DNA of 64,000 nt from Pristiophorus japonicus (Eukaryota). The number at the start of each line of letters is the position of its first letter. Position 1 is the stretch's first letter. The stretch is from contig NC_091979.1 of assembly GCF_044704955.1 (NCBI RefSeq), positions 165,850,001 to 165,914,000 of the forward strand, read 5' to 3'. The position numbers and the translations under genes are program-made. The notes beneath the pieces were generated by a model. That model was not told where the DNA came from. It made no database searches and was given only the letters and a program-made list of their open reading frames with translations. Below are positions 1,865 to 38,047 of the stretch, one piece after another.

Positions 1865-3226
1865 GTGTGTCTTCCTGTTGACTTCCACATAATGACAAAT
1901 GCCTTTTGAGAATCTTCTTACTTCCAAGTCTTTGTTTGTATATTGCTGGTAGATGTTCTGCTTGAAGGATAACTTAATTATTGTGCATAAATTGCTTTTG
2001 GCTGATCTGATGCTGGCTACAGGAGCAACAATGCTTTCCCACCACTGCTGCTGACACTTGAGTTATTTTGTTTCCATGATGTCACATGCTTTGCAGCTGA
2101 GTTGATTTTTTTTAAATGCACATGAGGCTTTTCGTTGCCTAAATGTTTGCCAGTTACATTGCTGAGATGTATCAATTCTTTTAAAGCTGATTCACCTGCT
2201 TTCTAGTTATTAGACCTATTAGTGATCAGAAGATTTTTTTTTAAGTTGCACTTCTGTATTTTCAGCTTATTTCAGGGATTATTTTAAAAGAGATTGTTTT
2301 GCTTCATGTTTTAGTGCTGACATCTTGCATTTATTGTTTTATTTGGACTATGGCAAGTGCTTATCATTAAAAATCACTTTCCAGTTTTAAAGATGGGCAG
2401 ATGGTAGCTAAGGATTAAGATGGTTATAGTGAGAAATTATTTTTCTATTTAACCGCACAGTTTGAGACATAATTAGGATTTTGTTAAAATTATCACAAGG
2501 GCAATATTTGTATCTATATAAAGAAGATTGTGTCCAGCAAGACAGTGATAGAAAGACTATCCAGCCTGGGGTAGAGGTGCATCACAGCATCAGGCCCTGC
2601 CACCATCTCTCTCCCAACCGCCTCCCCCACCCCCTCCCGCCTTCTTCCAATCGCATCCTCCTTTGTATCCAGGAGAAATCAAATAATTTTTCTGGCCAAT
2701 GAAGGGTCAGAGCCCTGAGTCTGCATCCACGTCTCCAAAGCAGATGAGATACAGTACAAGACATCCAGAGTGAAATTATGTGAGCAGTGTACAGAGTGGG
2801 AAATGTATGGAAGAGAGAGGAAACAGTGGCAAGGAGATATTCACAAAGACTGAGAAAAGAAATCAGTCAAAGATACAAAGATGACAGCAATGGAAAATAT
2901 GTGACAGCCACATACATCATAATAGTGAAAGAGAGAGAGAAAGAATGAGGAAAAGACCAACAAATCTCCATTGTATATACAAGCTTATCTTCTGTGAAAG
3001 CAGAGAGAGGGATAGAGAAAGATGAAGAGAGAGAAAACATTTTTTTTTTGTCCTTGAGTTAAATCACAAGAGATCAGCAAATATATCCAATGAAGTATTG
3101 TTAGCATCTTACATGGTAAAATAAACACAGATATTCATGTTTTAGAACGTTTCGAGTTTGGTTTGTACAACTTCTCCAGAATTAGTGTATTATTATATTA
3201 TTAATGCACTTACCTAAAAAGTGGTA

Positions 3227-3586
3227 CAGGTTGAACCTCCCTTATCCAGAACTCCCTTATCCGAATTCACTCCTCATTCAGAACCATTCCTGGCCACCGG
3301 GTGGCACATGCACAGAACTCCGACATGAACAAATTGAAGTCCTTCCTTGCTGCCGACTCCCGCAATCGCTGGCCTGACCCCGCGATCCACCGTCCCCCTC
3401 ACCCCACCCCCGCCCCACCCCGCATGATCTCTCCGCTACACTCCCAGCCCCAAGCCAGCCAGCCCCAATATTCCCTTGCTCAATACCTGTACCATCCAAT
3501 TTAATGTGACCATCCCTCGTCCGGAAAAATCTCTTATCCAAAACAGGCCAGGTCCCAAGAGTTCTGGATAAGGAAGGTTCAACCTG
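3227..3586. mobile_element. Tigger/pogo-like MITE (360 bp)
   Basis: 28-bp TIR caggttgaacctcccttatccagaactc / gagttctggataaggaaggttcaacctg (1 mismatch); left flank TA, right flank CA. TIR resembles the Tigger4/MER46 type. Confidence 0.8.
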
Positions 3587-3845
3587 CATCAGATTAGATT
3601 TCTTTATAACTACTAAGTAAGTCTGAGAGTCACTAGCAGTTTTGTGTATTAATATAGTTTAGGTCCAATATTATAGTAAAACTGTTTTCATCCACCCTAA
3701 ATATTATGCTTTAGAGTTAGACATTTGCACAACATTTCATTTTTATTCAACACACTTGCCTTTTTGGCAGGGGGTGGAAAGATATATAGAGTGGTTTTGC
3801 CTATCGATAACCATTAACTATATGCATGCAACCAAACTACTTTAG

Positions 3846-6800
3846 ATCTGCTTACAGCCACGAAGATGGACAAGCTGTCAACAGGTGGAGAATCCTCTGT
3901 TGCTAGTGGGGGAAGACCATCGTTGCATGAAGTGTCAGTGCCAGAGTTGAAAGATAAGACTATTGAACATACTGAACAACAAAAATCTGATCTGTCACCG
4001 TCTTCCACATTGGGTAAAGACAATGATGCTGTCAAAGGAATACCAGAGGAAGTTTTTACGAAACAGCATTCATTTTCAACAGATGTTTTGCAGACCAAAC
4101 CTGTTCCTGCATTACTCAAGAATGAACCATGTCCAGAAGACTTAGCTGCTTCTGGTGTTGAAACCATAACTAGCCACCATGAAAGTTCATTACTATCCAG
4201 TGTTCATGAAGACAAATGCATATCTATGGTGGCAGCAGAGAATACAGTTGTCCATGTGCAACCAAGCTCTGTCAAGAAAACAGATGAAATCATGAAACCC
4301 CAATACGATAAAACAGAAACACTGCCCAGCAAATCAGTTTTAGATGAAAGTAAAACAGCTCTTGGAAGACCTATCATTCAAGATTCAACAAAACAATCCA
4401 GTGCAGAGATTTCAGAGACAGGTTATTGTAAAGAAAAGGATGTTTCCCCAACTGTCACTATTGCTCCTGCAAAAGATTCATTAAAGGATAGTGAAGGAGC
4501 TTTGCGAAAAGAGCAATTGGTTGCAGGAACCTCAGCTACTGAAGACAAATATGTGTTGTATCAGCAAGAAATAAAAATAGATTCAGTTGCAACCACAGTT
4601 TCTGTTACAAAAGAGACAGAACAGCACATTCCTCAGGAAAAACCAGGAGTGCTTGAGGAATTGCATTTCGACAAAATTCCTGTAATCGCTTACAGTGCAG
4701 GTAAAGACAAAGCTGTAACTTCAGAAGACCCAACTAGTAAGGGAAAAGATATACCAGATACAATAAAACTGGTTGAACATATAGAAGATGTATTTTCAAT
4801 GCCAGAAGACAGATCAGAACCTGTTGAATACAGCTCCACAGAAAGTGCAGAACATCATTTAGAGCATTCGAAGGGGAAACCAGCAGTGGAAGAGACAATT
4901 TCCAGTACGATATTCTTATTACAAACTGAATCCTCTAAACATGTGTCTGAACAACTAACCACCAACCTTCCATTTAAGGAAATGGACCAAGCCGATCTTA
5001 AGGTAGCAGAAGTTAGGAAGTTAACTGATAGTACCTCTGCTCAGTCAGAAACTAAGAAAGAAGCTAATCTAAATGTACAACATAGCATGCAACCCACCAC
5101 AAGCGATGCAGACTCTACTCTTGAATTGATACAAGAGCCATGTGTTATGGACCAAAATATAGAAAAGTTGCATGTTACACATGCAAAAACTGAAGAAAAA
5201 AGCATTCAACAGGTATTTCCTCAAGAGAAAGAATCTGAAGCACAAAGTGTATGCCCATTGACTGATTCAAATGTCATTTCAGATAAAAATGCAGGAAATT
5301 CAATTAGTCCAATATTGCAAAACAGAAAAACTGACATTTTTAATATGAATTTGAAAGACAAGACAGGGATGGATCAGCCAGAAATGTCAAAGTATTTTGA
5401 AACATTTGTTTCAAAAGACGATGGTGCAAAAAGTAGCGAAAAACCCGAAGACGGTTATTACGAAATGACCATTACAAATGAAAACAATTCAAGACTTACT
5501 CATGTAGTGTCACAGCTCTCTGAGGCCCCACATGAAAAATCAAAAGTAGATACGCACATAGTCAAAAATAATATTTCAGCAGAAATAATTCATTATAGCA
5601 CACTTGCACTGGCATCTCTGCCTGTTGATGCACAGGCTAAATCCACTACAGGAAATGAAATTACTTTTCCTGCTCAACAGAGCCATCTGGAGAAAAAAGA
5701 CCTCTCCACAGCTATATCTCAACAACCTGATTCTAGCGCTGTTGTGAATATCGAAAAAGAATTACAAAAGCTGGTGCTGAATTTACCAACAACATCTTTA
5801 GATTCAATAGCACTGGAGGTGGAAACAGAGAGCCAAGGTCCCCCAGAATCTTTGTCGCCGCTGGCCTCTGACATTCTTGCCTGTACCAGGGGAATGAGCT
5901 TGGATGAATCGGCAGACTTTTTTCCAGTTACTACACCTGCTGAGGAGAAGACTGTTTGTTTTCCTGTTGAAGTGGAAAAAGCTAAAACTGTATCTGGCTA
6001 TGGAGAGAAATCAGCTGACGAAAGCCTGCATTTAGATACACAATATGCTTACCCGCTTACTTTGAAAGATGATTACAAAAATGACACTGTCGTGGTTCCT
6101 GACTTGCCTGAAATGTTGGATTTAGGTGTTACTCGAACTAGACTGAGCTCTGAGGGCACAGAAACAGAAATGGTTAGAAGAACATCCATGCCTGGAGAAT
6201 CTGCCACCGAAAATATTGCTTCTGGCTCAGAGGCTCAAATTGAAAGCATCAAACTAATTATTAAAAATGTTAGTCAAGCAGAGGAAATGGGCTACTGTGT
6301 TTTTGAATACTCGGCTCCATTACCAACTCCTGAGGAAGTTAAAAGTCCTCTAGCGGATGGCAGCATTTTCCTTCACCAAATCCGCACTGCTTCTCAGATT
6401 ATAGATGAGGAAAGTATCAGGAGGCAAATAGATGTTAATAAGCATAAAGAAGATTCACATTTTCGAATTACCACCGTGTCAGAAGACAGGGAATCAAAAA
6501 TAGCTACTATTTTGGAAGCACAGTCAGAAATCAAGACTGATGAATCAGTTTCGCTAAATGTTCTAAAGCAGGTTACTAAGACAGAGTCTGTACCAGTTTG
6601 TTTATGTGATGACTCTGAACTGAAAGAACTTAATCATCAAAATAAAGCCATGGCTATTGACACTCAGAAAATTACAATAGACTTTTCTCCAAAGTCTCCG
6701 GATTATGAAACTGAAAAGGCGAGTAAAAGTAACAATTTGTGCGATTTGCCTAGTGAGGTTACAGTGTCAGAAAAAGCTTTGAAAACAGAGTCTGTTGATC

Positions 6801-8273
6801 ACAAACTGTCTGAGAAAGATGCTTCTGTGCAAGAACCAGCTCAACCCAAGAAAACTTTAGAAGATGAACCAAGGCCTAGTTTTCCCAACGAAGTTACTGT
6901 GCCAGAAATAGGTTTAAAAATAGAGGCTGCTGATCACAAACTGTCCGAGAAAAGTGCTTCTGTTCAAGAACCAGCCCAACCCAAGAAAGTCTTGGAAGAT
7001 AAACCAAGGCCTACTTTGCCCAGGCAGGATACTGTGCTAGATGTAGATATAGATATAGATATAGAGACCATGGGTCACATATTTTGTGAGAAAGCTGCTC
7101 CTATTCAAGAAACAGATCAACCTAAGAAACTCTTGGAAGATGAATCTAGGCCCAGTTTGGCCAGTGAGATTGCAGTGCCAGAATCTGTTGATCATAAAGT
7201 GTCTGAGAAAGCTCCTTCTATTCAAGAGGCACCACAACCTCAGACGGTGGGAACTAAGTCACCCAGTGAGGCTATCTTATCAGAAGCAGGTTTAAAAACT
7301 GAAACTGTTGATCACAAAGTATCTGAGAAAACTGCTCCTGTACAAGAAGCCACTCCACCTGAGAAAATTATGGTAGATGCCACTGGGCCTAATTTGCCTG
7401 GTGAGGTTACTGTACCCGAAGTAGGTTTAAAAATGAAACCAATTGATCAAGTATCTGAGAAAGTCGTCCCTGCTCCAGAATCAGCTCAACCTAATAAAAT
7501 TAGGGAGGATGATACTAAGCCTGTTTTACCCAGTACGATTATTCCACCAAAAGAAGACTTAGAAACCATGCATTTTGATCACAAAATAATTGAGAAACCT
7601 GCTCCTGTGCAAGAAATTATTCAAACTGAGACAACCATGGAAGATACAACTATGCCTAGTTTATCTAGCAATGTTACAGGGTGCGTAATTAATCAGCCTA
7701 AGAAAATCACAGAAGGTGAAACTAGGATTATACCCAGTGAAGTTATTGTATCAGAAGTTTCAAAAATGGAGTCTGTTGATCACAGAACCTCTGAGAAAGC
7801 TGTTCCCGTAGAAGAACCAGCCGAAGCTGAGAAAACCATGAAAGACGAAGCTAAGTCCAATTTACTGATCAAGGTTACTGTGCCAGAAATAGTTTTACAA
7901 ATGGACCCTGCTGACTATGAAGTAGCTGAGAATGTTGTTCCTGTAGAAGAAACTGATGAAGAAAAAGGAATCGTAGAATCTGTCATTACAGTGGAAGATG
8001 ACATTATTACAGTTGTTCAGACCAAGTTGGAGGGAGGAGAGGACATGGGCCACAATGTGAGATTTGCCATGTCTGATGGTGGTGATGTTGAGGACGTTTT
8101 TACCCCTAATGAACAAACCCAGTTAACAGAAGAACAAGTTCATGAGCCACCTGTAAAAGCTGGCCAAATTGCACTTATCCCAGAGAAGATCGAGATCCCT
8201 ACGGACTTGAAAGAAGACGAGAGTATTGATGAATCAGCAATGGACACAGATAGCCTCTGGATGGATACTCAAG
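3846..8273 (+). CDS. map2: map2 giant projection-domain exon (4428 nt, phase 1-1)
   Basis: tttag|ATCTG gives DLLTATKM (human DLLTASKM). Conserved MAP2 motifs: MSKYFET, YSTLA, LDSIAL, LSPLASDIL, PDLPEMLDL, GYCVF, ESVITVEDDIITVVQT, VRFA, DSLWMDTQ. Donor AAG|gtgcct at 8274. Confidence 0.96.
6749..7960 (+). repeat. Coding tandem repeat, ~135-nt/45-aa unit, about 9-10 degenerate copies
   Basis: Units start at 6749 (PSEVTVSE..DHKLSEK..VQEPAQPKK) and 6884 (PNEVTVPE..DHKLSEK..VQEPAQPKK), exactly 135 nt apart. Further variants recur to ~7960. Confidence 0.92.
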
Positions 8274-8489
8274 GTGCCTGTAAAGCCTTAATAGCTATCA
8301 GCCATGATTAGATAGTAAAATCTCTTTATAAAAAAAAATAACATAAATAAGTAAGTACTGTCCTACAGTACACTCTAATCTTTAATGTTACTCAGTTTTT
8401 AAAAAGTAACATGAATTCAGTTTATGCTTTTTTTTCCTTATGATATCCCTGTTGCTATTAAAGTGATTTCTTGCACTCTAATTCTGCAG

Positions 8490-8693
8490 ATGAAGAGAGT
8501 ATCATAGTAACACAACCAGCTGCTGTTACTAAACAGGAGAAAGCAGAGAAGGAATTCAGCAGCCCATCTTTGGATAAACATAGGAAAGGAAAGGTGTTAA
8601 AAACGGGAAAAAACAGAGTTTCCACACCTGAAAGAAAAATAATTAAAAAAGATATCAGTGCAGTCTCCAAAGAAGACAAAAAGAAGAGAAAAG
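8490..8693 (+). CDS. map2: map2 exon (204 nt) DEESII...KKKRK
   Basis: ctgcag|AT acceptor, AAG|gttcat donor. EKAEKE, LDKHRK and RVSTPERK match MAP2. Confidence 0.95.
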
Positions 8694-8958
8694 GTTCATA
8701 CAATGGAAGCAATTTTTGTTTTCTCGTTGCATTTTTGTGATGTGAGGTGTTTGTACTGTGCCTATGTAACAGCATTATATTCTGAGATTTGACTGTAGAA
8801 ATTTTAGAGAATAAACAATAACCAGAAGTAGTAATATCTAATTTTCTAAATTGTTCTCTATTGTTTTCTTTAATGAAAAGTGGATGTTGAACATTCCACC
8901 TGACTTACCACATTGTTTCTGTCCTCATATATTTGCTCTTGTCTTTCCTCTCTAACAG

Positions 8959-9090
8959 CATATAAGAAGTCTGAACTTGCTAAAAAATCAGAAATTCAGA
9001 CCCGGTCTCCTTCCAGGAAAATCATTTTAAAACCAGCTGTAAGATATCATAGACCAGCTCACGTTCCTTGTACTAAACGGAAGCAGACAG
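8959..9090 (+). CDS. map2: map2 exon (132 nt) AYKKSELAKK...KRKQT
   Basis: ctaacag|CA acceptor, CAG|gtgact donor. YKKSELAKK and SPSRKIILKPAV match MAP2. Confidence 0.95.
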
Positions 9091-9701
9091 GTGACTGTTT
9101 AAACACCGCAATGTGGCTGGCAAACATGGACTTTACTTCATTGCTAGACTGGCTTTTTACCTGTGTTACTTTTTTTTCAGCCGCTGGGCTGTCGCAAGTT
9201 TATCTGTATTCAGCGCTTTTCATTTTTGTTTTCTACAGCAGTCATGATCACACATGCTTGTCGTGCACAAGCTTGCAAGTACAATGGTCTTAACCTTGAA
9301 GTGGTGACGTAATTCTTAATGTGGGAGTTTGTATAGATTGCTGTGTGCTGGTGGGAAAGTGTTGCAGCCTGCATCATGATATTCATTCACATTAATTTCT
9401 CTCGTGTTTAGAGGTATTCAGGTACAACTTGCATTACATGCAATATATGTTTTCCATTTGTTATTTAAGACGTGCTTTAATTTTTTTAAATTATGTATAC
9501 TAAGGTTTCCTCCCCACAGATCTTTTTTATTTGTTAGTTTGGATAATTTGTACTTCATTACTTTGCTTCCCATCTTATATGACAACAATGATTTTAAATG
9601 TCTTTTGCTTTCATATGCATCTTGATTTATATCCTGATCATAATGACACATTTATCTGGTCTATAGTGCTATATTCTAATATTAATATTCCTTTTGTCTA
9701 G

Positions 9702-9778
9702 TTCCTGGAAGTGTTGAAGGTGCATATATTATAGACCAGAAATTCTCTGTTGCTAAGCAACCCAAGGAGAGAATCACA
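9702..9778 (+). CDS. map2: map2 exon (77 nt, phase 1-0) VPGSVEGAYIIDQKFSVAKQPKERIT
   Basis: ttttgtctag| acceptor, ACA|gtaagt donor. C-terminal SVAKQPKERIT resembles human SVFKQAKDKVS. Not in the ORF track. Confidence 0.88.
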
Positions 9779-10620
9779 GTAAGTAAATTAGCTGAAAAAT
9801 ACAATGTGTTTTATGGAAGGTGGGACAACTTTTACAGTATTTGAAGTTTTCAGTTTAAAAAAAATAAAACAATTCACTTTTTTTGATAGATGTATATATC
9901 AAAGCCACAGATATTAAACTGTTCAGTATGATCCATACATATGATCTATTTTCTGAAAATAACCTCTTATTTTTGGATGTGTTTTGCCTTTTTTTCTAGT
10001 TTTCAGATTGTTTTGAGTTATTTCTAATTTGTAGATATAATAGATCTGCAGTGTGCCGTACACAGGATGGTTACTTGCCACTTGTAATCTGAGTACGCCA
10101 TCATACCGCCTTTGAAATTGATCACAAGTTCAGGATTTGTGCTAAATCCCAAACTTGCGAACTGTCAACTTCCGACTTCGCGTCAGCTTCGCTGTACGTT
10201 CACCTCCCCATTGAAATCAACGGCTGGCGAAAAGTTGTGCTAATTGCCCATCGACTGTGTATTAATTACCTTCAAAATGTTTACGGCTGGTGCAGACAGA
10301 CGCTGGAGCCTGTTGCACAGAGTAAGGGGAGGGGGGAAGGGATGACAATATTGTATTAATTTTGAGCTAGGTTTATTCCAAAGCGCATGAAAAGCATCCT
10401 AATTGATTTTTATAGTTCCTATAAAGAGGCCAGTAACATTTACCTATCTGCTAAAGTGCTCTTTAATTACTTTAATATCTATGTATTTAGGTTAAACTGT
10501 GCAAATCAAAATAACTACAATTTACTGTGTTAAATAATACTTCTTTTGGAACGTGCAGTGGGAATGGTAAAAATAAAAAAAGGTCAGCTGTTAATTACAT
10601 TAGCTTTATGATATTGGGAC

Positions 10621-13600
10621 TGTTGTGTTCCTAACACAGATGAGGCTGCACACAGGGAGGTTAAAGTAACAGTGACCTCATTCTTTATTAAGACACTCCA
10701 GAGTGAGGAACAGGCCTTAGGGGCTGGCTTATATACAGTGCTCCCAAGGGATGCTGGGATCCCTTGGGACTTCAGGTGATGAGCTCCGTGGTGGCGGAAC
10801 ATGGGAGTGCATGCTTTACAGATATACAACATCACTCCCGCCACCCCCCCCACCCCCCAAAGTCAAAGTGAAAACTATTTACAAGGTGAGGCGGTCGGGA
10901 GCCTTTCTTTGCCTGGTGGACCGCCTCGGTACAAATGTCTGTTCTGGTGTGTTGGCTGTGCCCTCGCTGGGCTGGCGTGTTGTTGGCCCTGCAGGGCTGC
11001 TGGGTGAGTCTGGCCTTGCTGGGCTGTTGGGCATGATGGGTTTGATTTCCTGGTCCGGGATGGTGTCGTTGATCCTTTAGGTGTGTGTTGCAGGCTCTAA
11101 AAAGGTGGTGTCTGCTGTGGGATGTTCAGAGCAATCTGTGAACCGCAACCTTGTTTGGTCCAGGTGCTTTCTGCAAACTGTCCATTGTCTAGTTTGACTA
11201 CAAACACCCTATTCCCATCTTTAGCTATTACCGTGCCCGCGATCCACTTGGGACCATGTCCATAGTTTAGCACATACACAGGGTCATTCAGATCAATTTC
11301 CCGTGACAGTGGCGCAACCATCATTTACATTTTGTTGCTGCCGCCTGCTCTCTACCTGATCATGCAGGTTGGGGTGAACCAGCGAGAGTCTGGTTTTAAG
11401 TGTCCTTTTCATGAGTAGCTCAGCCGGGGGCACCCCTGTGAGCGAGTGGGGTCTCGTGCGGTAGCTGAGCAGTACTCGGGATAGGCGGGTTTGGAGTGAG
11501 CCTTCTGTGACTCGCTTAAGGCTCTGTTTGATGGTTTGTACTGCCCGCTCTGCCTGCCCATTGGAGGCTGGTTTAAACAGGGCCGAGGTGACATGTTTGA
11601 TCCCATTGCGGGTCATGAATTCTTTAAATTCGGCACTGGTGAAACATGGCCCGTTGTCACTGACCAGTATGGCAGGCAGGCCGTGGGTGGCAAACATGGC
11701 CCTCAGGCTTTCAATGGTGGCGGTGCTTCCCGACATTATTTCACATTCAATCCATTTTGAAAAAGCATCCACCACCACCAGGAACATTTTACCGAGATAC
11801 GGGCCCGCTTAGTCGAAATGTATCCTCGACCATGGTCTGGAGGGCCAGGACCATAAATTAGTGGTGCCTCTCTGGGCGCGTTGCTCAAATGAGCACATAC
11901 ACTGCATTGCCATACACAGGACTCTTAAGTCAGAGTCGATACCGGGCCACCACACGTGGGATCTGGCTATCGCTTTCATCATTACTATACCTGGGTGTGT
12001 GCTGTGGAGATCCGAGATGAACGTCTCCCTGCCCTTGTTTGGTAGCACTACGCGGTTACCCCACAACAGGCAGTTTGCCTGAATGGACAGCTCATTCATT
12101 TGCCGCTGGAACAGCTTGATTGGCTCTTGCATTTCAACGGGGATGCTGGCCCAGCTCCCATGCAGTACAGTTTTTTTATAGGGACAGCAGAGGATCTTGG
12201 CTGGTCCAAGTCCTAATCTGGCGGGCTGTGACAGGTGATCTATCGTTTTCAAATGCTTCCATGACTATCAACAAGTCTGCGGGCTGCGCCACCATCAACA
12301 CTTTGCAGGCTGCGCCATTTCCACCCCAGTGGTGGGCAATAGTAGCCGACTAAGAGCATCCGCACAGTTCTCGGTGCCTGGCCTGTGGCGGATGGTATAG
12401 TTATATGCTGATAGATCGAGTGCCCACCTTTGTATGCGGGCTGAGGCATTAGTATTAATCCCCTTGTTTTCAGCGAACAGGGATGTGAGGGGCTTGTGAT
12501 CGGTTTCCAGCTCAAATTTGAGGCCAACCAGGGACTGATGCATTTTCTTTACCCCGAACACACACACTAATGCCTCTTTCTCAATCATGCTGTCGGCCCT
12601 CTCAGCCTTCGACAAGCTCCTGGAAACATAGGCGACAGGTTGCAACTTCCCCGCAACATTAGCTTGTTGTAATACACATCCAACTCCGTACGATGACGCA
12701 TCACATGCTAGCACAAGTCTTTTACATGGGTTATACAATACAAGCAGCTTGTTGGAGCATAAAATGTTTCTGGCTTTCTCAAAAACAATTACTTGGTTTT
12801 TTCCCCATACCCAGTTCTCACCTTTGTGCAATAACACATGTAGGGGCTTAAAAGGGTGCTTAACTCCGGTAGGAAGTTACCAAAATAGTTGAGGAGTCCC
12901 AGGAACGACCGCAGATCCGTGACGTTCTGTGGCTTGGGCGCGTTCCTGATAGCCTCTGTCTTGGCGTCTGTGGGCCGAATGCCGTCCGCCGCGATCTTTC
13001 TCCCCAAAAACTCCACTTCTGTTGCCATGAAGACGCATTTCGACCTCTTCAGCTGCAGCAATACGCGATCCAGTCGCTGGAGGACCTCCTCCAGTTTTGT
13101 AGGTGCTCGGCGGTGTCCCAACCTGTGACCAATATGTCGTCCTGAAAGACCACCGTGTATGGTACCGACTTGAGTAGGCTCTCCATGTTTCTCTGGAAGA
13201 TCGCTGCAGCCGACAGAATTCCAAACGGGCATCTGTTGTAGATGAACAGTCCCTTGTGCATGTTGAGGCCCTTCGAAGACTCCTCCAGCTCCTGTGTCAT
13301 GTAGGCCGGAGTCAGGTCAAGCTTGGTGAATGTCTTGCCTCCTGCCAGCGTCGCAAATAGGTCATCTGCCTTAGGTAGCGGATATTGGGTATTGGCCCTG
13401 TCGCGAGAAACGATTAATAGTTACTTTATAATCGCCGCAAATCCTGACCGCGCCAGCACTTTTGAGTATTGGAACAATCGGGTTGGCCCACTCGCTGAAT
13501 TCCACTGGGGAGATGATGCCCTCGCGTTGCAGCCTGTCCAGCTCGATTTCCACTCGCTCCCTCATCATGTGAGGTACCGCTCGCGCCTTGTGGTGAATGG

Positions 13601-15227
13601 GTCGTGCTTCTGGGACCAAGTGGATCTGCACCTTCGCCCCAGAAAAGTTTCCAATGCCTGGCTCAAAAAGGGAAGGAAATTTGTTAAGAACCTGGGTACA
13701 TGAGGCCTCATCGACATGTGATAGCGTTCGGATGTCATCCCAGTTCCAGTGGATTTTGCCCAGCCAGCTCCTTCCAAGCAGTGTGGGGCCATCGCCCGGG
13801 ACAATCCAGAGTGACAGTTCATGCACCGTGGCCTTGTAGATGACCTTGACCATGGCGCTGCCCAAGACAGTGATAAGCTCTTTGGTGTACGTTCTCAGTT
13901 TTGTGCAGATGAGGCTCAGGGCTGGTCTGATTGCCCTGTTGCACCACAGTCTCTCAAACATCTTTTTACTCATGATGGATTGGCTAGCGCCAGTGTCCAG
14001 TTCCATGGCTACGGGTAAGCCATTCAATTTTATGTTTAGCATTATAAGTGGACATTTCGTCGAAAATGTGTGCACCCCGTGTACTTCAGCATTTGCCTCC
14101 TCCCTCTCAGGCTCGAAATTGCTTTGATCTACCATGGACCGATCTTCCTCTGCCACGTGGTGGTTAGCAGGTTTTGCAGAGCTTGCAGCTCGTTTGCAAG
14201 CTCGTTGAAGGTGCCCCATTGTTCCACAGCTCTTGCAAACATACCCTTTGAAGCAGCATGAAAGGCTGAATGGAAGCCTCCACAATGCCAACAAGGTGTG
14301 AATTGCCTTGCATTCAACCTTTGTTGGGGACTCTGAGTCATCTGGGTCACCTGAGACCTGCTGGCAGTTGCAGATTCGTGGGTTCTGCCCTGTACATTTC
14401 TGCTCGTAAACACAGTTCCAGTTAATTTATGAACATTGCTAGCACTTGTGTGCTGAGACATTTGTTTGGTGTTATCACTGGTGGACATAAACGCCTGTGC
14501 TTTCGCAATGGCCTTACTGAAGGTCGGTGTCTCTACAGTCAAAAGTTTTCGTAGGATGGTCTCGTGGCCAATGCCCAGTACAAAAAAATCTCTGAGCATT
14601 TGCTCCAGGTAGCCATCAAACTCACATTGTCCTGCAAGTCGCCTAGTTCGGCGACGTAGCTCACCACTTCCTCACCTTCAGATCGCTGGCACGTGTAGAA
14701 CCGATACCTCGCCATCAGCACGCTCTCCCTCGGGTTAAGATGCTGCTGAACCAGTGTAAACAGCTCCTCAAACGACTTATTTGTGGGTTTCACTGGAGCC
14801 AGAAGATTTTTCATGAGGCTGTAGGTCGGTGTCCCGCAGACTGTGAGGAGGACACCTCTCCTTTTTGCAGTGCTTCCTACTCCGTCCAGCTGGTTGGCTA
14901 CAAAGTACTGGTCTAGCCGTTCAACATAGGCTTCCCAGTCCTCACCCTCCGAGACCTTCTCCAGGATGCCCACAGTTTGCTGCATCTTTGCGTTGGATTC
15001 ATATTCTCGTCGCAGTTGTTGTGTTCCTAAGACAGATGAGGCTGTACACAGGGAGGTTAAAGTAACAGTGACCTCAGTCTTTAATAAGACACTCCAGAGT
15101 GAGGAACAGGCCTTCGGGGCCGGCTTATATACAGTGCTCCCAAGGGATGCTGGGATCCCTTGGGACTTCAGGGGATGAGCTCCCTGGTGGCGGCACATGG
15201 GAGTGCATGCTTTACAGATACACAACA
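10621..15227 (-). mobile_element. Full-length Gypsy/Ty3 LTR retrotransposon, frameshifted gag-pol
   Basis: 211-bp TG..CA LTRs at 10621-10831 and 15017-15227 (10 differences by eye); 5-bp TSD GGGAC. PBS-like (t)gcgacgag next to the 5' LTR; PPT at 10832-10858. Fragments of gag, CCHC, protease LDTGA, RT FQDD, RNase H CDAS and integrase VSDNG, in PR-RT-RH-IN order. Confidence 0.96.
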
Positions 15228-15840
15228 GGGACCATCTGTTTTTGTATAGGCTTTGTGCCAAATAGCAGAAGACAAACCATTGTATAAATAAACAAAATGC
15301 ATATGATTTGTGTTTATTCATCACATTCACTTCTTTTGTGATTCACAATGCACATTATTAAATGAAAGTATGACTGTTTAACATCAATGAGAAGGTCATG
15401 CATACCCACAAACTAAGGAAAGGGTCTTCAATAATCAATTAGAGACAACAGGGGCAATTTGATGGACTTCTCCAAAGCTTAATGCTATCCCATCGGAGAT
15501 TTCTATTTTTCCTGATTGGCTTAGAGTCAGGAAGTGAAAGGAGCACCTCCTCTCGTGATTCCAAGTGAGCCCCTGGGATCCGTGGGCCACTACGCACAAC
15601 CTCACAGCATTTCAAAGCAACTTTTCGAAGAGGGCTTCACTCGAGGTAAATGCGTATTTCGTTTGGATGTCGGTGGCGTACTCCTTAGCTACGTCGCCGA
15701 GCGCAAGTTCAGGTCCATCATCTATCGATCAAAACAGGTGTGCCAGATAATATGGAATGCCTCGAGGTTAAGGGAAAAGAAGGTTGTAACTCAATTTTAT
15801 TTTGTGAATACTTGCACCCCTCTCACCATAAAGTAATATT

Positions 15841-21244: not shown

Positions 21245-23857
21245 ATAAGAACATAAGAAATATGAGCAGGAGTAGGCCATACATCCCCTCGAGCCTGCTC
21301 CGCCAATTAATACGATCATGGCTGATCTGATCATGGACTCAGGTTCACTTCCTTGCCCTTTCCCCATAACCCTTTAATCCCTTATCAGTTAAGAAGCTGT
21401 CTATCTCTGTCTTAAATGTATTCAATGACCCAGCTTCCTCAGCTCGCTGAAGCAGTGAATTCCACAGATTTACAACCATCTGAGAGAAGAAATTCCTCCT
21501 CATCTCAGTTTTAAATGGGCGGCCCCTTATTCTAAGATTATGCCCTCTAGTTCTAGTCTCCCCTATCAGTGGAACCATCCTCTCTGCAGCCACCTTGTCA
21601 AGCCCCCTCATAATCTTATATGTTTCGATAAGATCACCTCTCATTCTTCTGAATTCCAATGAGTAGAGGCCCAACCTCCTCAACATTTCCTCATAAGTCA
21701 ACTCCCTCATCTCCAGAATCAACCTAGTGACCCTAGGATGCAAGCCATCAGGTCCAGGGGATTTATCCGCCTTTAGTCCCATTATCTTACTGAGTACCAC
21801 CTCCTTAGTGATCATGATTGTGTTAAGTTCCTCCCCCCAACCGTTATAGCCCCCTGACTATCCACTGTTGGGATATTGTTTGTGTCCTCTACCGGAAAGA
21901 CTGATACAAAATATTTGTTCAGAGTTTCTGCCATCTCCATGTTCCCCATTATTAATTCCTCTGCCTCGTCCTCTAAGGGACCAACATTTACTTTAGCCAC
22001 TCTTTTCCTTTTTATATATCTGTAGAAACTCTTGCTATCTGTTTTTATATTTCGTGCTGGTTTACTTTCATAGTCCATCTTCCCTTTCTTAATTATTGTT
22101 TTAGTCATTCTTTGCTGGCTTTTAAAAGCTTCCCAATCTTCCGGCCTCCCACTAGTTTTGGCCACTTTGTATGCCCTTGTTTTTAATTGGATACCGTCCA
22201 TTATTTCTTTTCTTTGACACCTTTTTCTCCTCACTGGAATATATTTTTCTTGAGAGTTGTGAAATATCTCCTTAAATGTACGCCACTGTTCATCAACTGT
22301 CTTACACTTTAATCTATTTTCCCAGTCCACTTTAGCCAACACTGCCCTCATACCTTCATAGTCTTGTTTATTTAAGCTTAGTATGCTGGTTTAGGATCCA
22401 ACTTTCTCACCCTCCATCTGAATTTGAAATTCAACCATGCTATGATCACTCATTCCAAGGGCATCCTTTACTAGGAGATTGTTTATTAATCCTGTCTCAT
22501 TGCACAGGACCAGATCCAAGATAGCCTGCCCCCTGGTTGGTTCCATTACTTAGTGCTCAAGGAACCCGTCCATTATGCACTCCATGAACTCTTCCTCAAG
22601 GCTACCCTGACCAATTTGATTTGTCCAAATCAGTATGGAGGTTAAAATCATCCATGATTATTGCTGTTCCCCTTTTACAAGCCCCCACTATTTCCTGATT
22701 TATACTCTGACCAACAGAGTTGCTACTGCTGGGTGCCTATAGACTACACCCACCAGTGACTTTTTCCCATTATTCCATATCTCCACCCAAACTGTTTCAC
22801 CATCCAGATCATTTGAGCCAATTATCGTTTCTCACTATTGCAGTGATTCCATCCTTTATCAATAGAGCTACCCCACCTCCTTTTCCTTTCTGTCTGTCCT
22901 TCCGATTGTCAAATACCCCTGAATATTTAATTCCCAGTCCTGGTCACCTTGCAACCATGTCTCTGTAATGGCTATCAAATCATACCCATTTGTATTTATT
23001 TGTGCCATTAACTCATCTATTTTGTTACGAATGCTACGTGCATTTAGACAAAGTGCCTTTAAATTTGTTTTTTTACTCTTTTGTTTCTGCTTGTTTCCTC
23101 TCTCCTTCAAACTCACTTTCTTTATTTTTGCTTTACTCCCCTCCCTACTGAATCTACTTTCAGGTTCCCATCACCCTGCCAAGCTAGTTTAAACCCTCCC
23201 CAACAGTACTAGCAAACCGCCCCGCAAGGATATTGGTCCCGGTTCTGTTGAGGTGCAACCCATCTGGCTTATACAGGTCCCACCTCCCCCAGAAGCAGTC
23301 CCAATGCCTCAGGAAACTAAAGCCCTCCCTCCTGACCATTTCTCCAGCCACGCATTCATCTGCTCTATTCTCCTATTTCTGTATTCATAAGCTCGTGGCA
23401 CTGGGAATGATCTGGAGATTACTACCTTTGATGTCCTGCTTTTTAATCTAGCTCCCTAAACTCTGCCTGCAGGACCTCATCCCTCTTTCTACCTATGTCA
23501 TTGGTTCTGATGTGGGCCACGACCTCTGGCTGTTCACCCTCTCCATCCAGAATGCCCTGAAGCCGCTCAGTGACATCCTTGACCCTGGCACCAGGGAGGC
23601 AACATCCTGGAGTCACGTCTGCGGCCGCAGAAACGCCTGTCTGCTCCCTTGACTATTGAATCCCCTACCACGATAGCTCTTCCATTCTTCTTCCTCCCCC
23701 ATTGTGCAGCTGAGCCAACTGTGGTGCTGTGGATTTGGCTCTGGCTGCACTCCCCAGAGCCACCATCGCCCTCACCGGTACTCAGAACAGAGTACCGGCT
23801 GGAGAGCGGGATGGACTCAGGGGACTCCTGCACTACCTGCCTAGTCCTCCTCTTCTG
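21245..23857 (-). mobile_element. CR1 LINE with RT deleted, inserted in the Penelope element
   Basis: (cataagaa)n tail at 21245; ORF1 esterase (AIVVGDSIV) and APE start (LNARSIRNK). ADKSPGPDGLHPRV is fused directly to C-terminal TRLILEMR at ~21729. Confidence 0.9.
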
Positions 23858-24619: not shown

Positions 24620-27600
24620 GGGCTAGAACCTCCACTTTTTTTGCATGCTTAATGCCCACCTAACATCCATTTTACTGCTGAAATGACGTATAACGCCCAG
24701 ATATCGCCCATTTTGGTACAAAATGGAATCTGACGGGCATTTTTGGGAAACTTATCGGCGAGCGTTACTTTCCCCATCTGCTTAACGGCAGGAAAAAATA
24801 TTACCGCCCGCCCATTATTTTTGGGTGGAATCATCTGAATGGGTGAATTCAACGCCTATAATATTGCCCAGCGTTACTTTCCACACAGAATTAACGCCGA
24901 GATTCAATAATATCGTCCGCCCACTTTTTTTGGTCGTCAAGAGCACATCTGGCGAAAGTAACATCCAGGAGATCGCCCACCGTCACTTTCACCACCTCGC
25001 ACAAATATCGATCAGAATATCGCTCACCCAAAAAACGCCCAGGATAAGTGGAACTGTTCTGAACAAACGCCAGCGGTGTGGCTGGCATTTTTAAAATCGC
25101 ACTCTTACATGAGGAGCTGAGATCTGAACGATTTACCTGAAAGAACGTTGATGTGAGTGACAACGCTGACACACTGCTGTGTGTGTGCAGCTTAGACATC
25201 AATGGTGCCCATCAACTTGGTGCCAGTTAAAGTTTACGTTGATTGATGTTAAGTTGTATTTAACCCTTTCATGTTAAGGAATCACCAGAGTGTAACGGTG
25301 CAGCTATCTGAGACAATGCGCAACAAGATTATGTTCAATAACAAAACTGTTATACCAGCATTGGTCTGAAATCGTAAGTATCACAGCCAATAACACCCAA
25401 CCCCCGCCCATACCCCACTTTTTTCACCATTGACATCAATCAAATGTTCAACATGTCCAGCAACACAGAATGCAAAGGCAAAGCAGGAGCGTGGTCCCCA
25501 GCTCCCATACATTACAACAAATTGCATACACCCAGATGGAGATATAACACAGCCATCGCCTGCGGACATGCACCTCACTTTCCTTCCCCACTCCCCTTCT
25601 TCTCCCCATGACTCCCCCCTTCCCCTCCTCGCTCCACAGCGACTGGCCGAGCGGGAGGCACCGACAGGGCAACATTCTCTGATGCAGAAGCAGGATCTTG
25701 GTCCTTGCTCTCATCTGTCGTTCGCAGAGGTGGTGCGGAACCTAGGGGTGGAGTGCAGCACTCAGGGACCACTGGGAGGCTTGTGGCAGCAGTGTTCCTG
25801 GCTATCGCATCCAGGGCCTCCGCCATCCGCAGAATGTACTCAGTCGTGGTGGCCAGCTGTCGGGATATGCCCCCCAATGCTTCGATGAGCTGGTCACCAA
25901 TGTCTACAGTCCTCCTGGACTCTTGTACCATCTCTCCGCTGTCATGTGGCGCTCATGGAACAGACCTGCCGCATCCACGAGACCTCCACGGGGTCGGCGC
26001 CATCCTGGGGACAAATGGGGTGCCCTGTGGCGAGGTGCTTGGGACCGGTACCTCCAGAGTGGAGGCGGCAATGACCGGAGGACCACTAGATCGTCTTGAG
26101 GTGGAATGCCTTCTGGAGCATGGCGATGCAGGTTCTTCGAAGTCCGCGCTCTCATCCTTGGAGAACAGACCCAGCGGATTGACGGGTTAGAATCGGAGCT
26201 CCTCAGCACCAGATGTTGGATCGTCCGAAGAGTCGTGCTCCATGCCCCCACCTTCTGGCCACCGTGGTCTTGCCTTGGGACACGCTGCTGGCTGAGCTGC
26301 AAAACATAAATGAGGTTATTAGAGGAGAAGGGGGTGCTAGGATCACAAGGTGAGTCCAGCGCTACACACAGCATATGCACGACAAAAGCACCATCTCTCT
26401 TAAAATCATCGCAGACCTCACATTTCATGACCATCAACATATTTGCATTCCAATGATTTTCATTAGGCCATCATTATTTCTATGACAATTTTAGAAATCA
26501 TCTATCATATATGATTGTTCGGATATGAGTGGGTATGGCATCTATTGAATTTACATCACGCAGTTGTGTAAGCTTTACTCGCGTGGCATCACTTCAGGGT
26601 CTGCAGATGCGTCCATGGCTGTCCGGGGGTGCTTCCCCAGGAGTATGAGCACCCGCTCCTCCATCTCAGTGATGTCGCGAGGGACTGGTGGCGCCGCCCC
26701 CCCCCCATCCGTTTGCCTCTGCACGGACCTCGTCCATAGCTTCTTCTGTAAAAGGTGACAGGACGACATAGCATGAGATCATTGCGTGATATCTTTGCTA
26801 AGTACTGTCACAGAGACTGATACAACACATAACCGATGTAATCATGATTATTATGGAAATTATCATTCTTTACCTAAAGACGTGCACCGTGACCGCAGGC
26901 TTTGAGTAAAACATTCCCGATAAAAGTGAAAGATCTCACATCTGATGATAGTCACTCATGACTTTTACAAATCAAATTATATAAATACATAAGTACATGT
27001 AAATCAATGTAATGCTTACTCTTACGGATCCCCCAAGATCGTTGAATCGTTTGCGGCATTGGTTGCTGACACGAACTTCATTGGTCGCCGACGAGACCAC
27101 CTTGGCTATCTCGGTCCATATCCTCTGATATGCCTTTGGGGTGGGCTTCCCACACCCTCCCTGTGGCAAATCACCCCAGCATGACTTGACCTCCTGCAGG
27201 AGGGAGTCATTTGCCTTGTCCGAGAACCTGCTGGCTCCTTTGCGCCCTCCAATGTGCTCTTCTCCCACCTCACTGCTCTCTCCAGCGTCAGTCTCCACAG
27301 TGTGCTGTGGTGCCTCCTCTTCTCTCTCCATTATAGGCCAAATTTGGGCAAATATGTGGCTGGTAACAGCTACTTTTTGTTTGCCTACTTGCTGTGAAGC
27401 TCTAAAGTCTCCCTCCTTCCTCCCAAAGCAGCCACACCATACCCAGCCACGCTTTCAGTGCCTCTGAGCTCCCTCTCTCTCTGTCTCTTCTTCTGCGCAT
27501 GTCATGATGACTCTTGACCTCCTGAATCACGGGAATCTAGCGTTGCCATGCCGTTGTTAAGGACGGCCACACTTTACGGCAGAAGGTCAAAAAATGTTAC

Positions 27601-30384: not shown

Positions 30385-31617
30385 AGAAACAAAGAAAGTA
30401 GGTGCAGGAGTAGGCCATTCGGCCCTTCAAGCCTGCATCACCATTCAATATGATCATGGCTGATCATGCAACTTCAGTACCCCATTCCTGCTTTCTCTCC
30501 ATACCCCTTAATCCCTTTAGCCATAAGGGCCACATCTAACTCCCTTTTGAATATATCCAACGAACTGGCTTCAACAACTTTCTGTGGTAGAGAATTCACA
30601 GGTTCACAACTCTCGGTGAGTGAAGAAATTTCTCCTCATCTCGGTCTTAAATAGCTTACCCATTATCCTTAGACTGTGATCCCTGGTTCTGGACTTCCCC
30701 AACATCAGGAACATTCTTCCTGCATCTAACCTGTTCAATCCTGTCAGAATTTTATATGTTTCTATGAGATCCCCTCTCATTCTTCTAAATTCCAGTGAAT
30801 ATAAGCCTAGTCGATCCAGTCTTTCTTCATGTGTCAGTCCTGCCATCCCGGGAATCAGTCTGGTGAACCTTCGCTGCACTCCCTCAATAGCAAGAATGTC
30901 CTTCCACAGATTAGGAGACCAAAACTGCACACAATACTCAAGGTGTGGTCTCACCAAGGCCCAGTACAACTGCAGTAAGACCTCCTTGCTCCTATACTCA
31001 AACCCCCTCGCTATGAAGGCCAACATGCCATTTGCTTGCTGTACCTGCATGCCTACGTTCAATGACTGATGTACCATGACACCCAGGTCTCATTGCCCCT
31101 CCTCTTTTACTAATCTGTCACCATTCAGATAATAATCTGCCTTCCTTTTTTTTCAACCAAAGCGGATAACCTCACACTTATCCACATGATACTGCATCTG
31201 CCATGCATTTGCCCATTCATCTCACCTGTCCAAGTCCTTCTGCAGCCTCCTAGCATCCTCCTTGCAGCTCGCACTGCCACCCAGCTTAGTGTCATCTGCA
31301 AACTTGGAGATATTACATTCAATTCCTTTGTCTAAATCATTAATGTATATTGTAAATAGCACTGAACCTTGCGGCACCCCACTTGTCACTGCCTGCCATT
31401 CAGAAAAGGACCCGTTTATTCCTACTCTTTGCTTCCTGTCTGCCAACCAGTTCTCTATCCACGTCAATACATTACCCTCAATACCATGTGCTTTAATTTT
31501 GCACACTAATTTCTTGTATGGGACCTTTTCAAAAGCCTTTTGAAAGTCCAAATACACCACATCCACTGGTTCTCCCTTGTCCACGCTACTAGTTACATCC
31601 TCAAAAAAATCTAGAAT
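30385..31617 (-). mobile_element. CR1 LINE, 5'-truncated
   Basis: [34 protein letters not shown]; tail at 30385. Confidence 0.93.
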
Positions 31618-31738
31618 GGAAAGATATTGGATTTTTTAAATCCTGAAATAGATAAGACCAGGGATACCTTAGAGCAGATATTTTAAGCAGGCAGTTTTGT
31701 AAAATAATTAATAGCCAATAGTTGCAGTTGCTTGTAGT

Positions 31739-33984
31739 TGGAGAGTGACACAGTTAATTCAGAAACTAGGGTCCTGAACTTAAGGAAAGGTAACTTCGAT
31801 GGTTTGAGGCATGAATTGGCTAGAGTAGACTGGCAAATGATACTTAAAGGGTTGACGGTGGATAGACAATGGCAAAACATTTAAAGATCACATGGACGAA
31901 CTTCAGCAATTGTACATCCCTGTCTGGAGTAAAAATAAAACGGGGAAGGTAGCTTACCGTGGCTAACAATGGAAATTAAGGATAGTATTAAATCCAAGGA
32001 AGAGGCATATACATTGGCCAGAAAAAGCAGCAAACCTGAGGACTGGGAGAATTTTATAATACAGCAGAGGAGGACTAAGGGTTTAATTAGGAGGGGGAAA
32101 ATAGAGTATGAGAGGAAGCTTGCTGGGAACATAAAAACTGACTGCAAAAGCTTCTATAGATATGTGAAGAGAAAAAGATTAGTGAAGACAAACGTAGGTC
32201 CCTTGAAGTCAGATTCAGGCAAATTTATAATGGGGAACAAAGAAATAGCAGACCAGTTAAACAAATACTTTGGTTCTATCTTCACGAAGGAAAACACAAA
32301 TAACCTTCCGGAAATATCAAGGGACCGAGGGTCTAGTGAGAAGGAGGAAGTGAAGGAAATCCTTATTAGACAGGAAATTGGGTTAGGGAAATTGATGGGA
32401 TTGAAGGCCGATAAATCCCCGGAGCCTGATCGTCTGCATCCCAGAGTACTTAAGGAAGTAGCTCTAGAAATAGTGGATGCATTGGTGATCATTTTCCAAC
32501 AGTTTATCGACTCTGGATCGGTTCCTATGGACTGGAGGATAGCTAATGTAACACCACTTTTTAAGAAGGGAGGCAGAGAGAAGGCGGGTAATTATAGACC
32601 GGTTAGCCTGACATCAGTCGTGGGGGAAATATTGGAATCAATTATTAAAGATGAAATAGCAGCACATTTGGAAAGCAGTTACGGGATCGGTCCAAGTCAG
32701 CATGGATTTATGAAAGGGAAATCCCACACAGACAAATCTTCTCAAATTTTTTGAGGATGTAAATGGTAGAGTGGACAAGGGAAAACCAGTGGATGTGGTG
32801 TATTTGGACTTTCAAAAGGCTTTTGACAAGTTCCCACACAAGAGATTGGTGTGCAAAATTAAAGCACTTGGTATTGGGGGTAATGTACTGACGTGGATAG
32901 AGACCTGGTTGGCAGACAGGAAGCATAGAGCCGGAATAAATGGGTCCTTTTCAGAATGGCAGGCAGTGACTAGTGGGGTGCCGCAGGGCTCAGTGCTGGG
33001 ACCGCAGCTCTTTACAATATACATTAATGATTTGGATGAAGGAATTGAGTGTAATATCTCCAAGTTTGCAGATGACACTAAGCTGGGTGGCAGTGTGAGC
33101 TGTGAGGAGGATGCTAAAAGGCTGCAGGGTGACTTGGACAGGTTAGGTGAATAGGCAAATGCATGGCAGATGCAGTATAATGTGGATAAATGTGAGGTTA
33201 TCCACTTTGGTGGCACAAACACAAAGGCAGAATATTATTTGAATGGCGGCAGATTAGGAAAAGGGGGAGGTGTAACGAGACCTGGGTGTCATGGTACATC
33301 AGTCATTGAAAGTTGGCATGCAGGTACAGCAGGCAGTGAAGAAGGCAAATGTTATGTTGGCCTTCATAGCTAGGGGATTTGTGTATCGGAGCAGGGAGGT
33401 CTTACTGCAGTTGTACAGGGCCTTAGTGAGGCCTCACCTGGAATATTGTGTTCAGTTTTGGTCTCCCAATCTGAGGAAGGACATTCTTGCTATTGAGGGA
33501 ATGCAGCGAAGGTTCACCAGACTGATTCCCGGATGGCAGGACTGACATATGAGGAGAGACTGGATCGTTTATTCACTGGAGTTTAGAAGGATGAGAGGGG
33601 ATCTGATAGAAACATATAAGATTCTGACGGGACTGGACAGGTTAGATGCAGGAAGAATGTTCCCGATGTTGGGGAAGTCCAGAACCAGGGGACATAGTCT
33701 CAGGATAAGGGGTAAGCCATTTAGGACTGAGATGAGGAAAACTTCTTCACTCGGAGAGTTGTTAACCTGTGGAATTCCCTACCGCAGAGAGTTGTTGATG
33801 CCAGCTCATTGGATATATTCAAGAGTGAGTTCGATATGGCCCTTATGGCTAAAGGGATCAAGGGGTATGGAGAGAAAGCAGGAAAGGGGTACTGAGGTGA
33901 ATGATCAGCCATGATCTTATTGAATGGTGGTGCTAGCCCGAAGGGCTGAAAGGCCTACTCCTGCACCTATTTTCTATGTTTCTA
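31739..33984 (+). mobile_element. CR1 LINE, 5'-truncated, disrupted ORF2
   Basis: NYRPVSLTS, SQHGF, KFADD; tttctatg tail at ~33975. Confidence 0.94.
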
Positions 33985-37206: not shown

Positions 37207-37526
37207 AGCTTTGAGAAATTTGCTGTGCTTTGACGTATTTCTAGTTGTGCCTTACTAGTGAGTATGAAAGCCTCTGCTGGAACTTATATTGCTCACAGCA
37301 TTTTAAAACCTCAAAATGTTTTTATTGCAGGTGTGGGGGTGGGTGGAGGCAAGAGTGATTTAGGGGAGAATTGTTTATTCTCATAATTTTTCTTTCATTG
37401 AGTATTTCTAAATTTAATTTCCAAATGCATGGATGTTTGTCCCTGTTTCAGCTTGCTATTGTTGAAACCAATCAAGAAGCTTACATGGGACTTTCAGATA
37501 ATAATGACACAATTTGCTCTCTGTAG

Positions 37527-37665
37527 GATGCAATGAGGAGCCCAGAGAAGCGTTCTGCTCTGCCCAGACCTTCTTCAATCCTGTCCACTCGCCGGGCTCC
37601 ACCAGAAGAAAAAGATTTCATTCCAGCTACAAGCCCAGTTTATTCTGCACCAAGACGACCAACAA
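37527..37665 (+). CDS. map2: map2 exon (139 nt, phase 0-1) DAMRSPEKRSALPRPSSIL...RRPT
   Basis: ctgtag|GAT acceptor, CAA|gttagt donor. SPEKRSxLPRPSSIL is diagnostic of MAP2. Confidence 0.95.
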
Positions 37666-38047
37666 GTTAGTTTTGTACTTATTTTTGAAAACATAGGGAT
37701 AACTAATTTTGAACAATATACCCCATAATATCGAGTTTTCGATCATATGAGATATAAGCATTGTGAAGGAAAGTCAAAAAAGTGTTTACATTGCATTTTC
37801 TTTGCTGAATTAGGACATGATGCATACAATGTCAAAATTATTCTAGACATGCAACCTGCTCAGTATTTTATCAATACAATTATTTACAACAGTGACTACA
37901 CTCCAAAAGTACTTCATTGACTGTAAAGCACTTTGAGATGTCCGGTGGTCTGTTTTTCTTTCTTTCTTTATAATTATTTGTAGATAATTAATGTAGAGGA
38001 AAGCCAAACATAGTTCAGTTTCAAGACCTAACCAATTTGCTGGAGTC

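Follow-up and report, generated by a model that had tools for sequence, protein, structure and literature searches.

The projection domain of the vertebrate MAP2A/B proteins (PF08377) is the closest described relative of the sequence considered here, namely the giant projection exon of the MAP2 gene of the sawshark Pristiophorus japonicus, which is located in a window of 64,000 nucleotides (NC_091979.1, positions 165,850,001-165,914,000, forward strand; all coordinates below are positions of this window). The shark and vertebrate sequences agree in gene, exon, conserved anchor blocks and a disordered acidic arm, whereas the interval between the anchors GYCVF and ESVITVEDD (GYCVF-ESV interval) contains an array of ten repeat units in the shark, comprises 513-562 amino acids in elasmobranchs as compared with 419-421 in 98 mammal records, and carries the motif LPRQD[T/N] in place of LVHQEA. 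Imperfect repeats in a projection arm are likewise known from MAP4, another member of the MAP2/tau/MAP4 family, the activity of whose KDM repeats tracks length and not sequence (PMC7479186); these repeats are built from an unrelated unit of 14 amino acids in a paralogue, whereas the shark array consists of 45-amino-acid units with one conserved junction. Exon 4a of Big tau is also a large and poorly conserved projection insert, of independent origin in several lineages, that is thought to provide length (PMC9755724), but it is alternatively spliced and belongs to a sister gene, and that study did not cover cartilaginous fishes.

A second line of background concerns the protein kinase CaMKII, for which the high-affinity pattern R/K-x-x-hydrophobic-x-R/K-x-x-S/T-hydrophobic with Gln at position -2 has been described, with residues I205 and E96 of the kinase lining the -5 and -3 pockets (PMC9336311). 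MAP2 is a substrate of CaMKII with several phosphorylation sites that have not been mapped (review PMC12343504). In dendrites, the activated kinase relocates to microtubules, a process that is blocked by the substitutions I205K and E96K and raised by overexpression of MAP2B, and for which the binding partner was left open (PMC3444784). The comparison of elasmobranch MAP2 sequences presented here leads to the explanation, to which we assign a probability of about 0.5, that the repeat array probably now serves as a disordered spacer, of which one conserved junction, located between units 2 and 3, would dock activated CaMKII onto MAP2.

Structure and age of the elasmobranch repeat array

The gene was identified as MAP2 by a match to PF08377 (expectation value (E) 1e-59) and by 100% identity with the named MAP2 record P0002 of P. 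japonicus. This record, which is identical to the exon of the window, combines PF08377 with the C-terminal tubulin-binding repeats PF00418 and consequently represents high-molecular-weight MAP2. The open frame around the array comprises 1497 codons. Contigs of four public runs were aligned to positions 3000-10000, the assignment as RNA being a guess of the tool and the runs carrying no tissue label. A single contig of run X3 with a length of 5019 bases and about 92% identity spans positions 3598-8271 and continues over three downstream GT..AG introns; overlapping contigs of run X1 span the array with the same splice joints, and in run X4, which is near-identical to the window, positions 7736-8271 are joined to the next exon. 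Since GT..AG splice joints are present, the contigs represent processed transcripts, and the projection exon including the array is part of spliced mRNA. Removal of this region from brain transcripts, which the preliminary description of the locus had considered, was not observed in these spliced contigs without tissue label. In run X4, one near-identical contig shows the first splice joint yet reads on into the next intron (8692-8822).

The array covers 404 codons without a stop and was resolved into ten degenerate units of 45, 45, 47, 34, 45, 44, 45, 23, 44 and 32 amino acids (seven of 44-47 and three short ones), and every indel preserves the reading frame. The preliminary description, made from the sequence of this stretch, had already recognised some nine to ten degenerate units of about 45 amino acids and a frame that stays open despite indels; its placement of the array between GYCVF and ESVITVEDD is right as to the location, although the array occupies only the last 404 of the 562 amino acids of this interval, and its recurring DHK-SEK motif exists in the strict form DHKxSEK in just four of nine matching sites of P. 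japonicus. The units share 57-82% identity at the DNA level, and Tandem Repeats Finder detected the period of 135 for the first 2.2 copies only. The top self-match comprises 18 of 20 residues at a lag of 45, far above the maximum of 9 reached by shuffled sequences (n = 30). An AlphaFold2 model of the array yielded a mean predicted local distance difference test (pLDDT) score of 40.7, with 352 of 404 residues below 50. Neither a Pfam match above the cut-off nor an Atlas match of at least 0.9 nor a confident AlphaFold2 model pointed to a domain or fold in the array, and a PDB search returned one match at chance level (E 9.5). A transposon or satellite origin was rejected, as the unit was found nowhere in the genome but at this locus in searches that give lower bounds, both as protein (at least 5 matches) and as DNA (at least 3 matches).

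MAP2 was found in 18 shark and ray species, 17 of which were used with one record each that reaches both anchors; the incomplete sequence of Mobula birostris was left out. Ten units in the same order were present in all 17 elasmobranchs, with a total array length of 367-406 amino acids when the units are cut by alignment columns. No whole unit was gained or lost in these species, the largest change being found in Hemiscyllium, where half of unit 6 is missing. A tree was built from 56 units, namely the seven full units of eight species (short units and nine species omitted), and in it the position labels need six changes, which is the minimum possible, as compared with 38.6 for shuffled labels. 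Five of the seven position groups are starred in this tree, unit 2 groups at 80/90 and unit 1 is split; a second way of cutting the units gave an agreeing position grouping. Since the units cluster by position and not by species, the array is older than the shark-ray split, which has been dated to 306 million years ago (252-387; PMC3692497). Accordingly, the array goes back to an old tandem duplication within the giant exon of MAP2 that predates this split and is shared by sharks and rays down to the single units.

The synonymous divergence (dS) between units amounts to 0.41-0.73. No MAP2 of a chimaera was present among the matches listed (best 120 of 2361 in one search). In rays the length of the array is kept and the repeat signal is mostly gone, with 8-11 of 20 residues matching versus shuffle maxima of 9-10. 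Additionally, the start of unit 2 (positions 6884-6960) has been rewritten in the seven batoids, which all carry the same RVTVTVLEMES there, and in Heptranchias (P0004) unit 2 contains residues resembling unit 1 as far as the edge of the conserved island, possibly owing to local gene conversion.

The conserved junction and its likeness to CaMKII-binding peptides

Two conserved islands, both missed in the preliminary description, were detected within the array (Table 1). The main island at the junction of units 2 and 3 differs from the start of unit 1 by three single-base changes that convert Ser-Glu-Val into Arg-Gln-Asp. When numbered from the threonine residue, it contains Arg at -8, Leu at -5, Arg at -3, Gln at -2 and Val at +1 in 17 of 17 elasmobranchs. 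Position 0 is occupied by Thr in 12 species and by Asn in the five carpet sharks, and position -6 represents one freely varying residue (Thr, Ile or Ser). This pattern of conservation makes it highly probable that the island is a binding motif. A description of the shark repeat or of the island motif was not found in the open-licence literature at the level of article listings; MAP2 is not mentioned in PMC12443042.

With a basic residue at -8, Leu at -5, a basic residue at -3, Gln at -2 and a hydrophobic residue at +1, the island matches the docking form of the CaMKII pattern of PMC9336311 in all 17 species, and the full pattern including Ser/Thr at position 0 in 12 of them. The docking form occurs once per protein in each of ten elasmobranch proteins tested, as compared with 0.00-0.03 occurrences per shuffled protein. 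The same five features are shared by the CaMKII-binding sequences of densin-180, GluN2B and Tiam1 (PMC9336311). The densin-180 peptide has the same residues as the shark island at -8, -5, -3, -2 and -1, the last being Asp, and resembles it also in a non-phosphorylatable residue at position 0, which is Arg in densin-180 (PMC9336311). The binding of these three proteins was measured and crystallised, whereas the shark site is a candidate ligand and is richer in proline. It is conceivable, at slightly less than even odds, that the partner of the island is the CaMKII substrate groove, whose known pockets would accept the invariant residues at -8, -5, -3, -2 and +1. Because position 0 is Asn in five of the 17 species, docking rather than phosphorylation would be the relevant event. 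The CaMKII kinase domain encoded by the metagenome contig L017 contains 19 of 19 listed groove residues.

Several observations weigh against CaMKII as the partner of this candidate site. The pattern that we take to be the class I SH3 ligand motif is also present in the island of all 17 species. The island contains Pro at -4, -7 and -9, Asp at -1 and Leu at +2, and CaMKII substrates disfavour proline and acidic residues (P/D/E) on the minus side and favour an acid at +2 (PMC9336311). Moreover, a second full CaMKII consensus, RS[S/A]LPRP, is located downstream of the projection exon in 8 of 10 elasmobranch and 14 of 24 bony-vertebrate proteins (some of them fragments) as well as in 97 of 98 mammal records, and this site alone could explain the cell data of PMC3444784. 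The same article states that overexpressed MAP2 may act via stabilisation of microtubules. In the window, this site lies in the region 37527-37667 (residue 2003 of P0002); its extended form RS[S/A]LPRP[S/A]S, likewise a match to the full CaMKII consensus, shows conservation from sharks to mammals.

The corresponding interval in bony vertebrates

The unit profile of the sawshark matched five to nine units in each of the 17 elasmobranch proteins and none in 27 proteins of bony vertebrates, which include coelacanth, lungfish, bichir, sturgeon, bowfin, teleosts, amphibians, a bird and mammals (one without the interval). In three mammalian intervals no self-repeat above the level of shuffled sequences was detected. 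The repeat thus proved to be lineage-specific and the three mammalian intervals non-repetitive, as originally proposed, and a repeat shared across bony vertebrates was not found in the 27 proteins. The shark interval exceeds that of mammals by only about 90-140 amino acids and lies within the range of 259-758 amino acids in 24 bony-vertebrate proteins. Seven of these 24 proteins carry unrelated, near-perfect repeats in the same interval (16-20 of 20 residues identical), which are regarded as young because of this near-perfection. Such young unrelated arrays with lags of 18-42 amino acids are present in sturgeon (Acipenser, P0131), tarpon (Megalops, P0134), catfish (Ameiurus, P0133), salmon (Oncorhynchus, P0140) and dragonet (Synchiropus, P0136). 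They resemble the shark array as tandem expansions in the GYCVF-ESV interval but consist of other units and lie after an intact LVHQEA motif, whereas in the shark the motif is part of an old array. The ray-finned fish arrays are better candidates for variable copy numbers than the shark array. The interval tolerates repeat expansion, which has arisen separately in elasmobranchs and several ray-finned fishes, and the KDM repeats of MAP4 and exon 4a of Big tau suggest such tolerance for the family.

Of 26 bony-vertebrate proteins, 24 contain the sequence LVHQE once each; it follows GYCVF at a distance of 162-316 residues, as compared with 207-247 for the shark site, and VHQEA and LVHQE are the sole five-letter words common to all 24 bony intervals. 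A KPDLVHQEA-type motif inside the GYCVF-ESV interval is near-invariant from coelacanth and bichir to mammals (P0124-P0145, P0026-P0123); the 98 mammal records (P0026-P0123) all have KPDLVHQEAV, close to residue 1120 of the mammalian protein. A profile of 19 columns built from the bony motif placed the shark site at rank 1 in 13 and at rank 2 in four of the 17 whole proteins (about 2200 positions). The reverse search with the shark site yielded rank 1 in 7 and a rank of 6 or better in 21 of 24 bony proteins. Among 75 profile settings, the median rank was 1 in 45 and never worse than 14, with reverse medians of 2-30. The bony motif retains the basic residue at -8 in most species, Leu at -5, Gln at -2, the acid at -1 and a hydrophobic residue at +1.

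The correspondence between both sites and its extension to CaMKII are weakened by other results. A window of 13 columns reduces the match to ranks 2-10 (reverse 2-154). Because the 17 shark sites are near-copies of each other and the register was first spotted by eye, the profile match amounts to one moderately strong test. The bony motif contains His at -3 in 24 of 24 proteins and Ala at 0, and because of these two residues it fails the strict CaMKII pattern, the docking form being matched in 0 of 24. On balance, slightly better than even odds favour a correspondence of the island to LVHQEA, in which either the repeat would have been copied from the segment with the ancestral motif or one junction would have re-evolved a similar site. 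The motif-bearing unit sits beside unit 1 in the trees without starred support (94/83, and 88/74 with the second way of cutting), a placement that leans towards a new gain. On the other hand, the bony profile gives eight of the nine other junctions a score in its 87th-99th percentile, a result that leans towards descent from an ancestral motif. No partner of the LVHQEA motif is named in the available parts of the MAP2 reviews, and a full-text literature search for VHQEA listed a single paper, which looks unrelated. It would be a bold and rather improbable extension that all jawed-vertebrate high-molecular-weight MAP2 proteins contain an undescribed CaMKII docking site in the projection arm (LVHQEA in bony vertebrates, LPRQD[T/N] in elasmobranchs), that this site is the missing microtubule-side partner for the activity-driven recruitment of dendritic CaMKII, and that the shark repeat arose from the segment of this site and kept it in one copy.

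The second island, located in the last unit (P-E-I-V-L-Q/H), fits only a relaxed version of what we presume to be the PxIxIT pattern, which is matched 1.3-1.8 times per shuffled interval. PxIxIT-like stretches occur at differing places in MAP2, namely as P-x-V-x-[V/I/L]-T upstream of LVHQEA in teleosts, as PDIS[I/V]T downstream of it in mammals and as VPEIVL in the shark. Possibly, these stretches are candidate docking sites for calcineurin that are turning over (see PMC4516873 for the definition of the docking motif).

Alternative explanations and biological meaning

A less likely alternative retains the frozen spacer and assumes that the island binds another partner, for instance an SH3 domain via KxxPxxP, the likeness to CaMKII ligands and to LVHQEA being coincidental. 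The presumed SH3 pattern in all 17 species, the invariant prolines at -9, -7 and -4 and the continuation of the conserved stretch into an acidic-hydrophobic tail, which the CaMKII pattern leaves unexplained, are in line with this assumption. MAP2 is also known to bind SH3 proteins via its proline-rich region (PMC9525131). However, binding of an SH3 domain leaves the invariant Arg-Gln-Asp and Val unexplained, the RPxL part is also found in other, non-conserved junctions, and the bony profile, which is devoid of PxxP, still ranks the shark site first or second.

It is very unlikely that the whole array, island included, is a passive relic in which the conservation of the island goes back to a feature at the nucleotide level, for instance an RNA or splicing element. 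The contigs of runs X1 and X3 revealed no listed substitution, even a synonymous one, between positions 6960 and 7031, in a small sample with 7032-7073 masked. On the other hand, the variation at -6 and the exchange of Thr and Asn at position 0 affect sites at which a linear protein motif can accommodate substitutions, the island is more than 1.2 kilobases away from either splice site, and the bony motif is similar at the protein level.

As to selection on the array as a whole, the mean pairwise identity among the 17 elasmobranchs is 0.49 for the array without the two islands and 0.48 for the linker, as compared with 0.90-0.92 for the flanking blocks. DHKxSEK is retained in 13 and DHKxxEK in 22 of 153 site-by-species cells. 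Since the array diverges like the linker and keeps DHK-SEK in 13 of 153 cells, it is not a multivalent dock. Two values speak against a purely passive spacer: the ratio of the proportions of non-synonymous and synonymous differences (pN/pS) relative to run X3 is about 0.42, indicating that the array is not strictly neutral (18 non-synonymous and 12 synonymous differences; 30 of 39 differences listed), and the ratio of non-synonymous to synonymous substitution rates (dN/dS) between four full units is 0.34-0.94. This selection would fit a constraint on composition and length, and most of the array is very probably maintained because of its length, charge and disorder and not because of its sequence, as in other projection arms of microtubule-associated proteins.

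The preliminary interpretation as a lineage-specific tunable spacer or multivalent DHK-SEK docking array agrees with the restriction of the repeat to elasmobranchs, with some purifying selection on the array and with the role of projection-arm length in setting microtubule spacing (PMC12343504, PMC9525131), but apart from the lineage restriction it is most improbable and largely refuted between species, since unit number and order are identical in 17 of 17 species, the units group by position, rays hold the length while the repeat signal is largely lost, and the DHK-SEK motif has decayed as described above.

Table 1. Features of the MAP2 projection exon in the window of P. japonicus
Feature	Position	Strand	Observations
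Giant MAP2 exon, projection domain of the high-molecular-weight isoform	3858..8273	+	Corresponds to P0002 residues 327-1798 at 100%; spliced to the following exon by a GT..AG joint in contigs of X1, X3 and X4; borders taken from the sequence
Conserved block starting GYCVF, 5' anchor	6290..6480	+	Mean pairwise identity 0.92, 17 elasmobranchs
Non-repetitive linker, internal rate control	6481..6748	+	Mean pairwise identity 0.48 over 90 columns
Array of ten degenerate units, predicted disordered	6749..7960	+	Unit starts 6749, 6884, 7019, 7160, 7262, 7397, 7529, 7664, 7733, 7865
Main island at the unit 2/3 junction, EDKPRPxLPRQD[T/N]VLD; candidate CaMKII docking/phosphorylation site (Thr 7031-7033)	6995..7042	+	Identity 0.93, a value that none of 5000 column shuffles attained; 13 of 16 positions invariant in 17 of 17 species; fits the pattern of PMC9336311
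VPEIVL, second island, located in the last unit; a mere lead with weak resemblance to PxIxIT	7880..7897	+	Invariant in 17 of 17 species; invariant run of six in 2 of 5000 shuffles
Conserved block starting ESVITVEDD, 3' anchor	7976..8060	+	Mean pairwise identity 0.90 over 7970-8060

Elsewhere in the window, two broken elements resembling long terminal repeat (LTR) retrotransposons, with matches to integrase, protease, reverse transcriptase and RNase H, are located on the minus strand of MAP2 introns (about 11290-15340 and 41570-45010). Intronic fragments of long interspersed nuclear elements (LINEs) were found at 21345-22390, 30604-32754, 34647-38922 and 57239-60233, two of them with matches to reverse transcriptase and endonuclease, and a weak Myb/SANT-like frame lies at 26972-27454.

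The repeat itself is a modest evolutionary point, and its value lies in the contrast between the fast-decaying units and the one junction that stands out among them and leads on to a motif that has hardly changed among bony vertebrates. As a spacer repeat, the array is ancient and ordinary, and it has brought to light a conserved motif of MAP2 that apparently lacks a description. This motif, the island of elasmobranchs and LVHQEA of bony vertebrates, may be considered as a candidate for the microtubule-side partner of activated CaMKII that PMC3444784 left open. If the bold extension described above is true, MAP2 would be a scaffold for PKA as well as for CaMKII.

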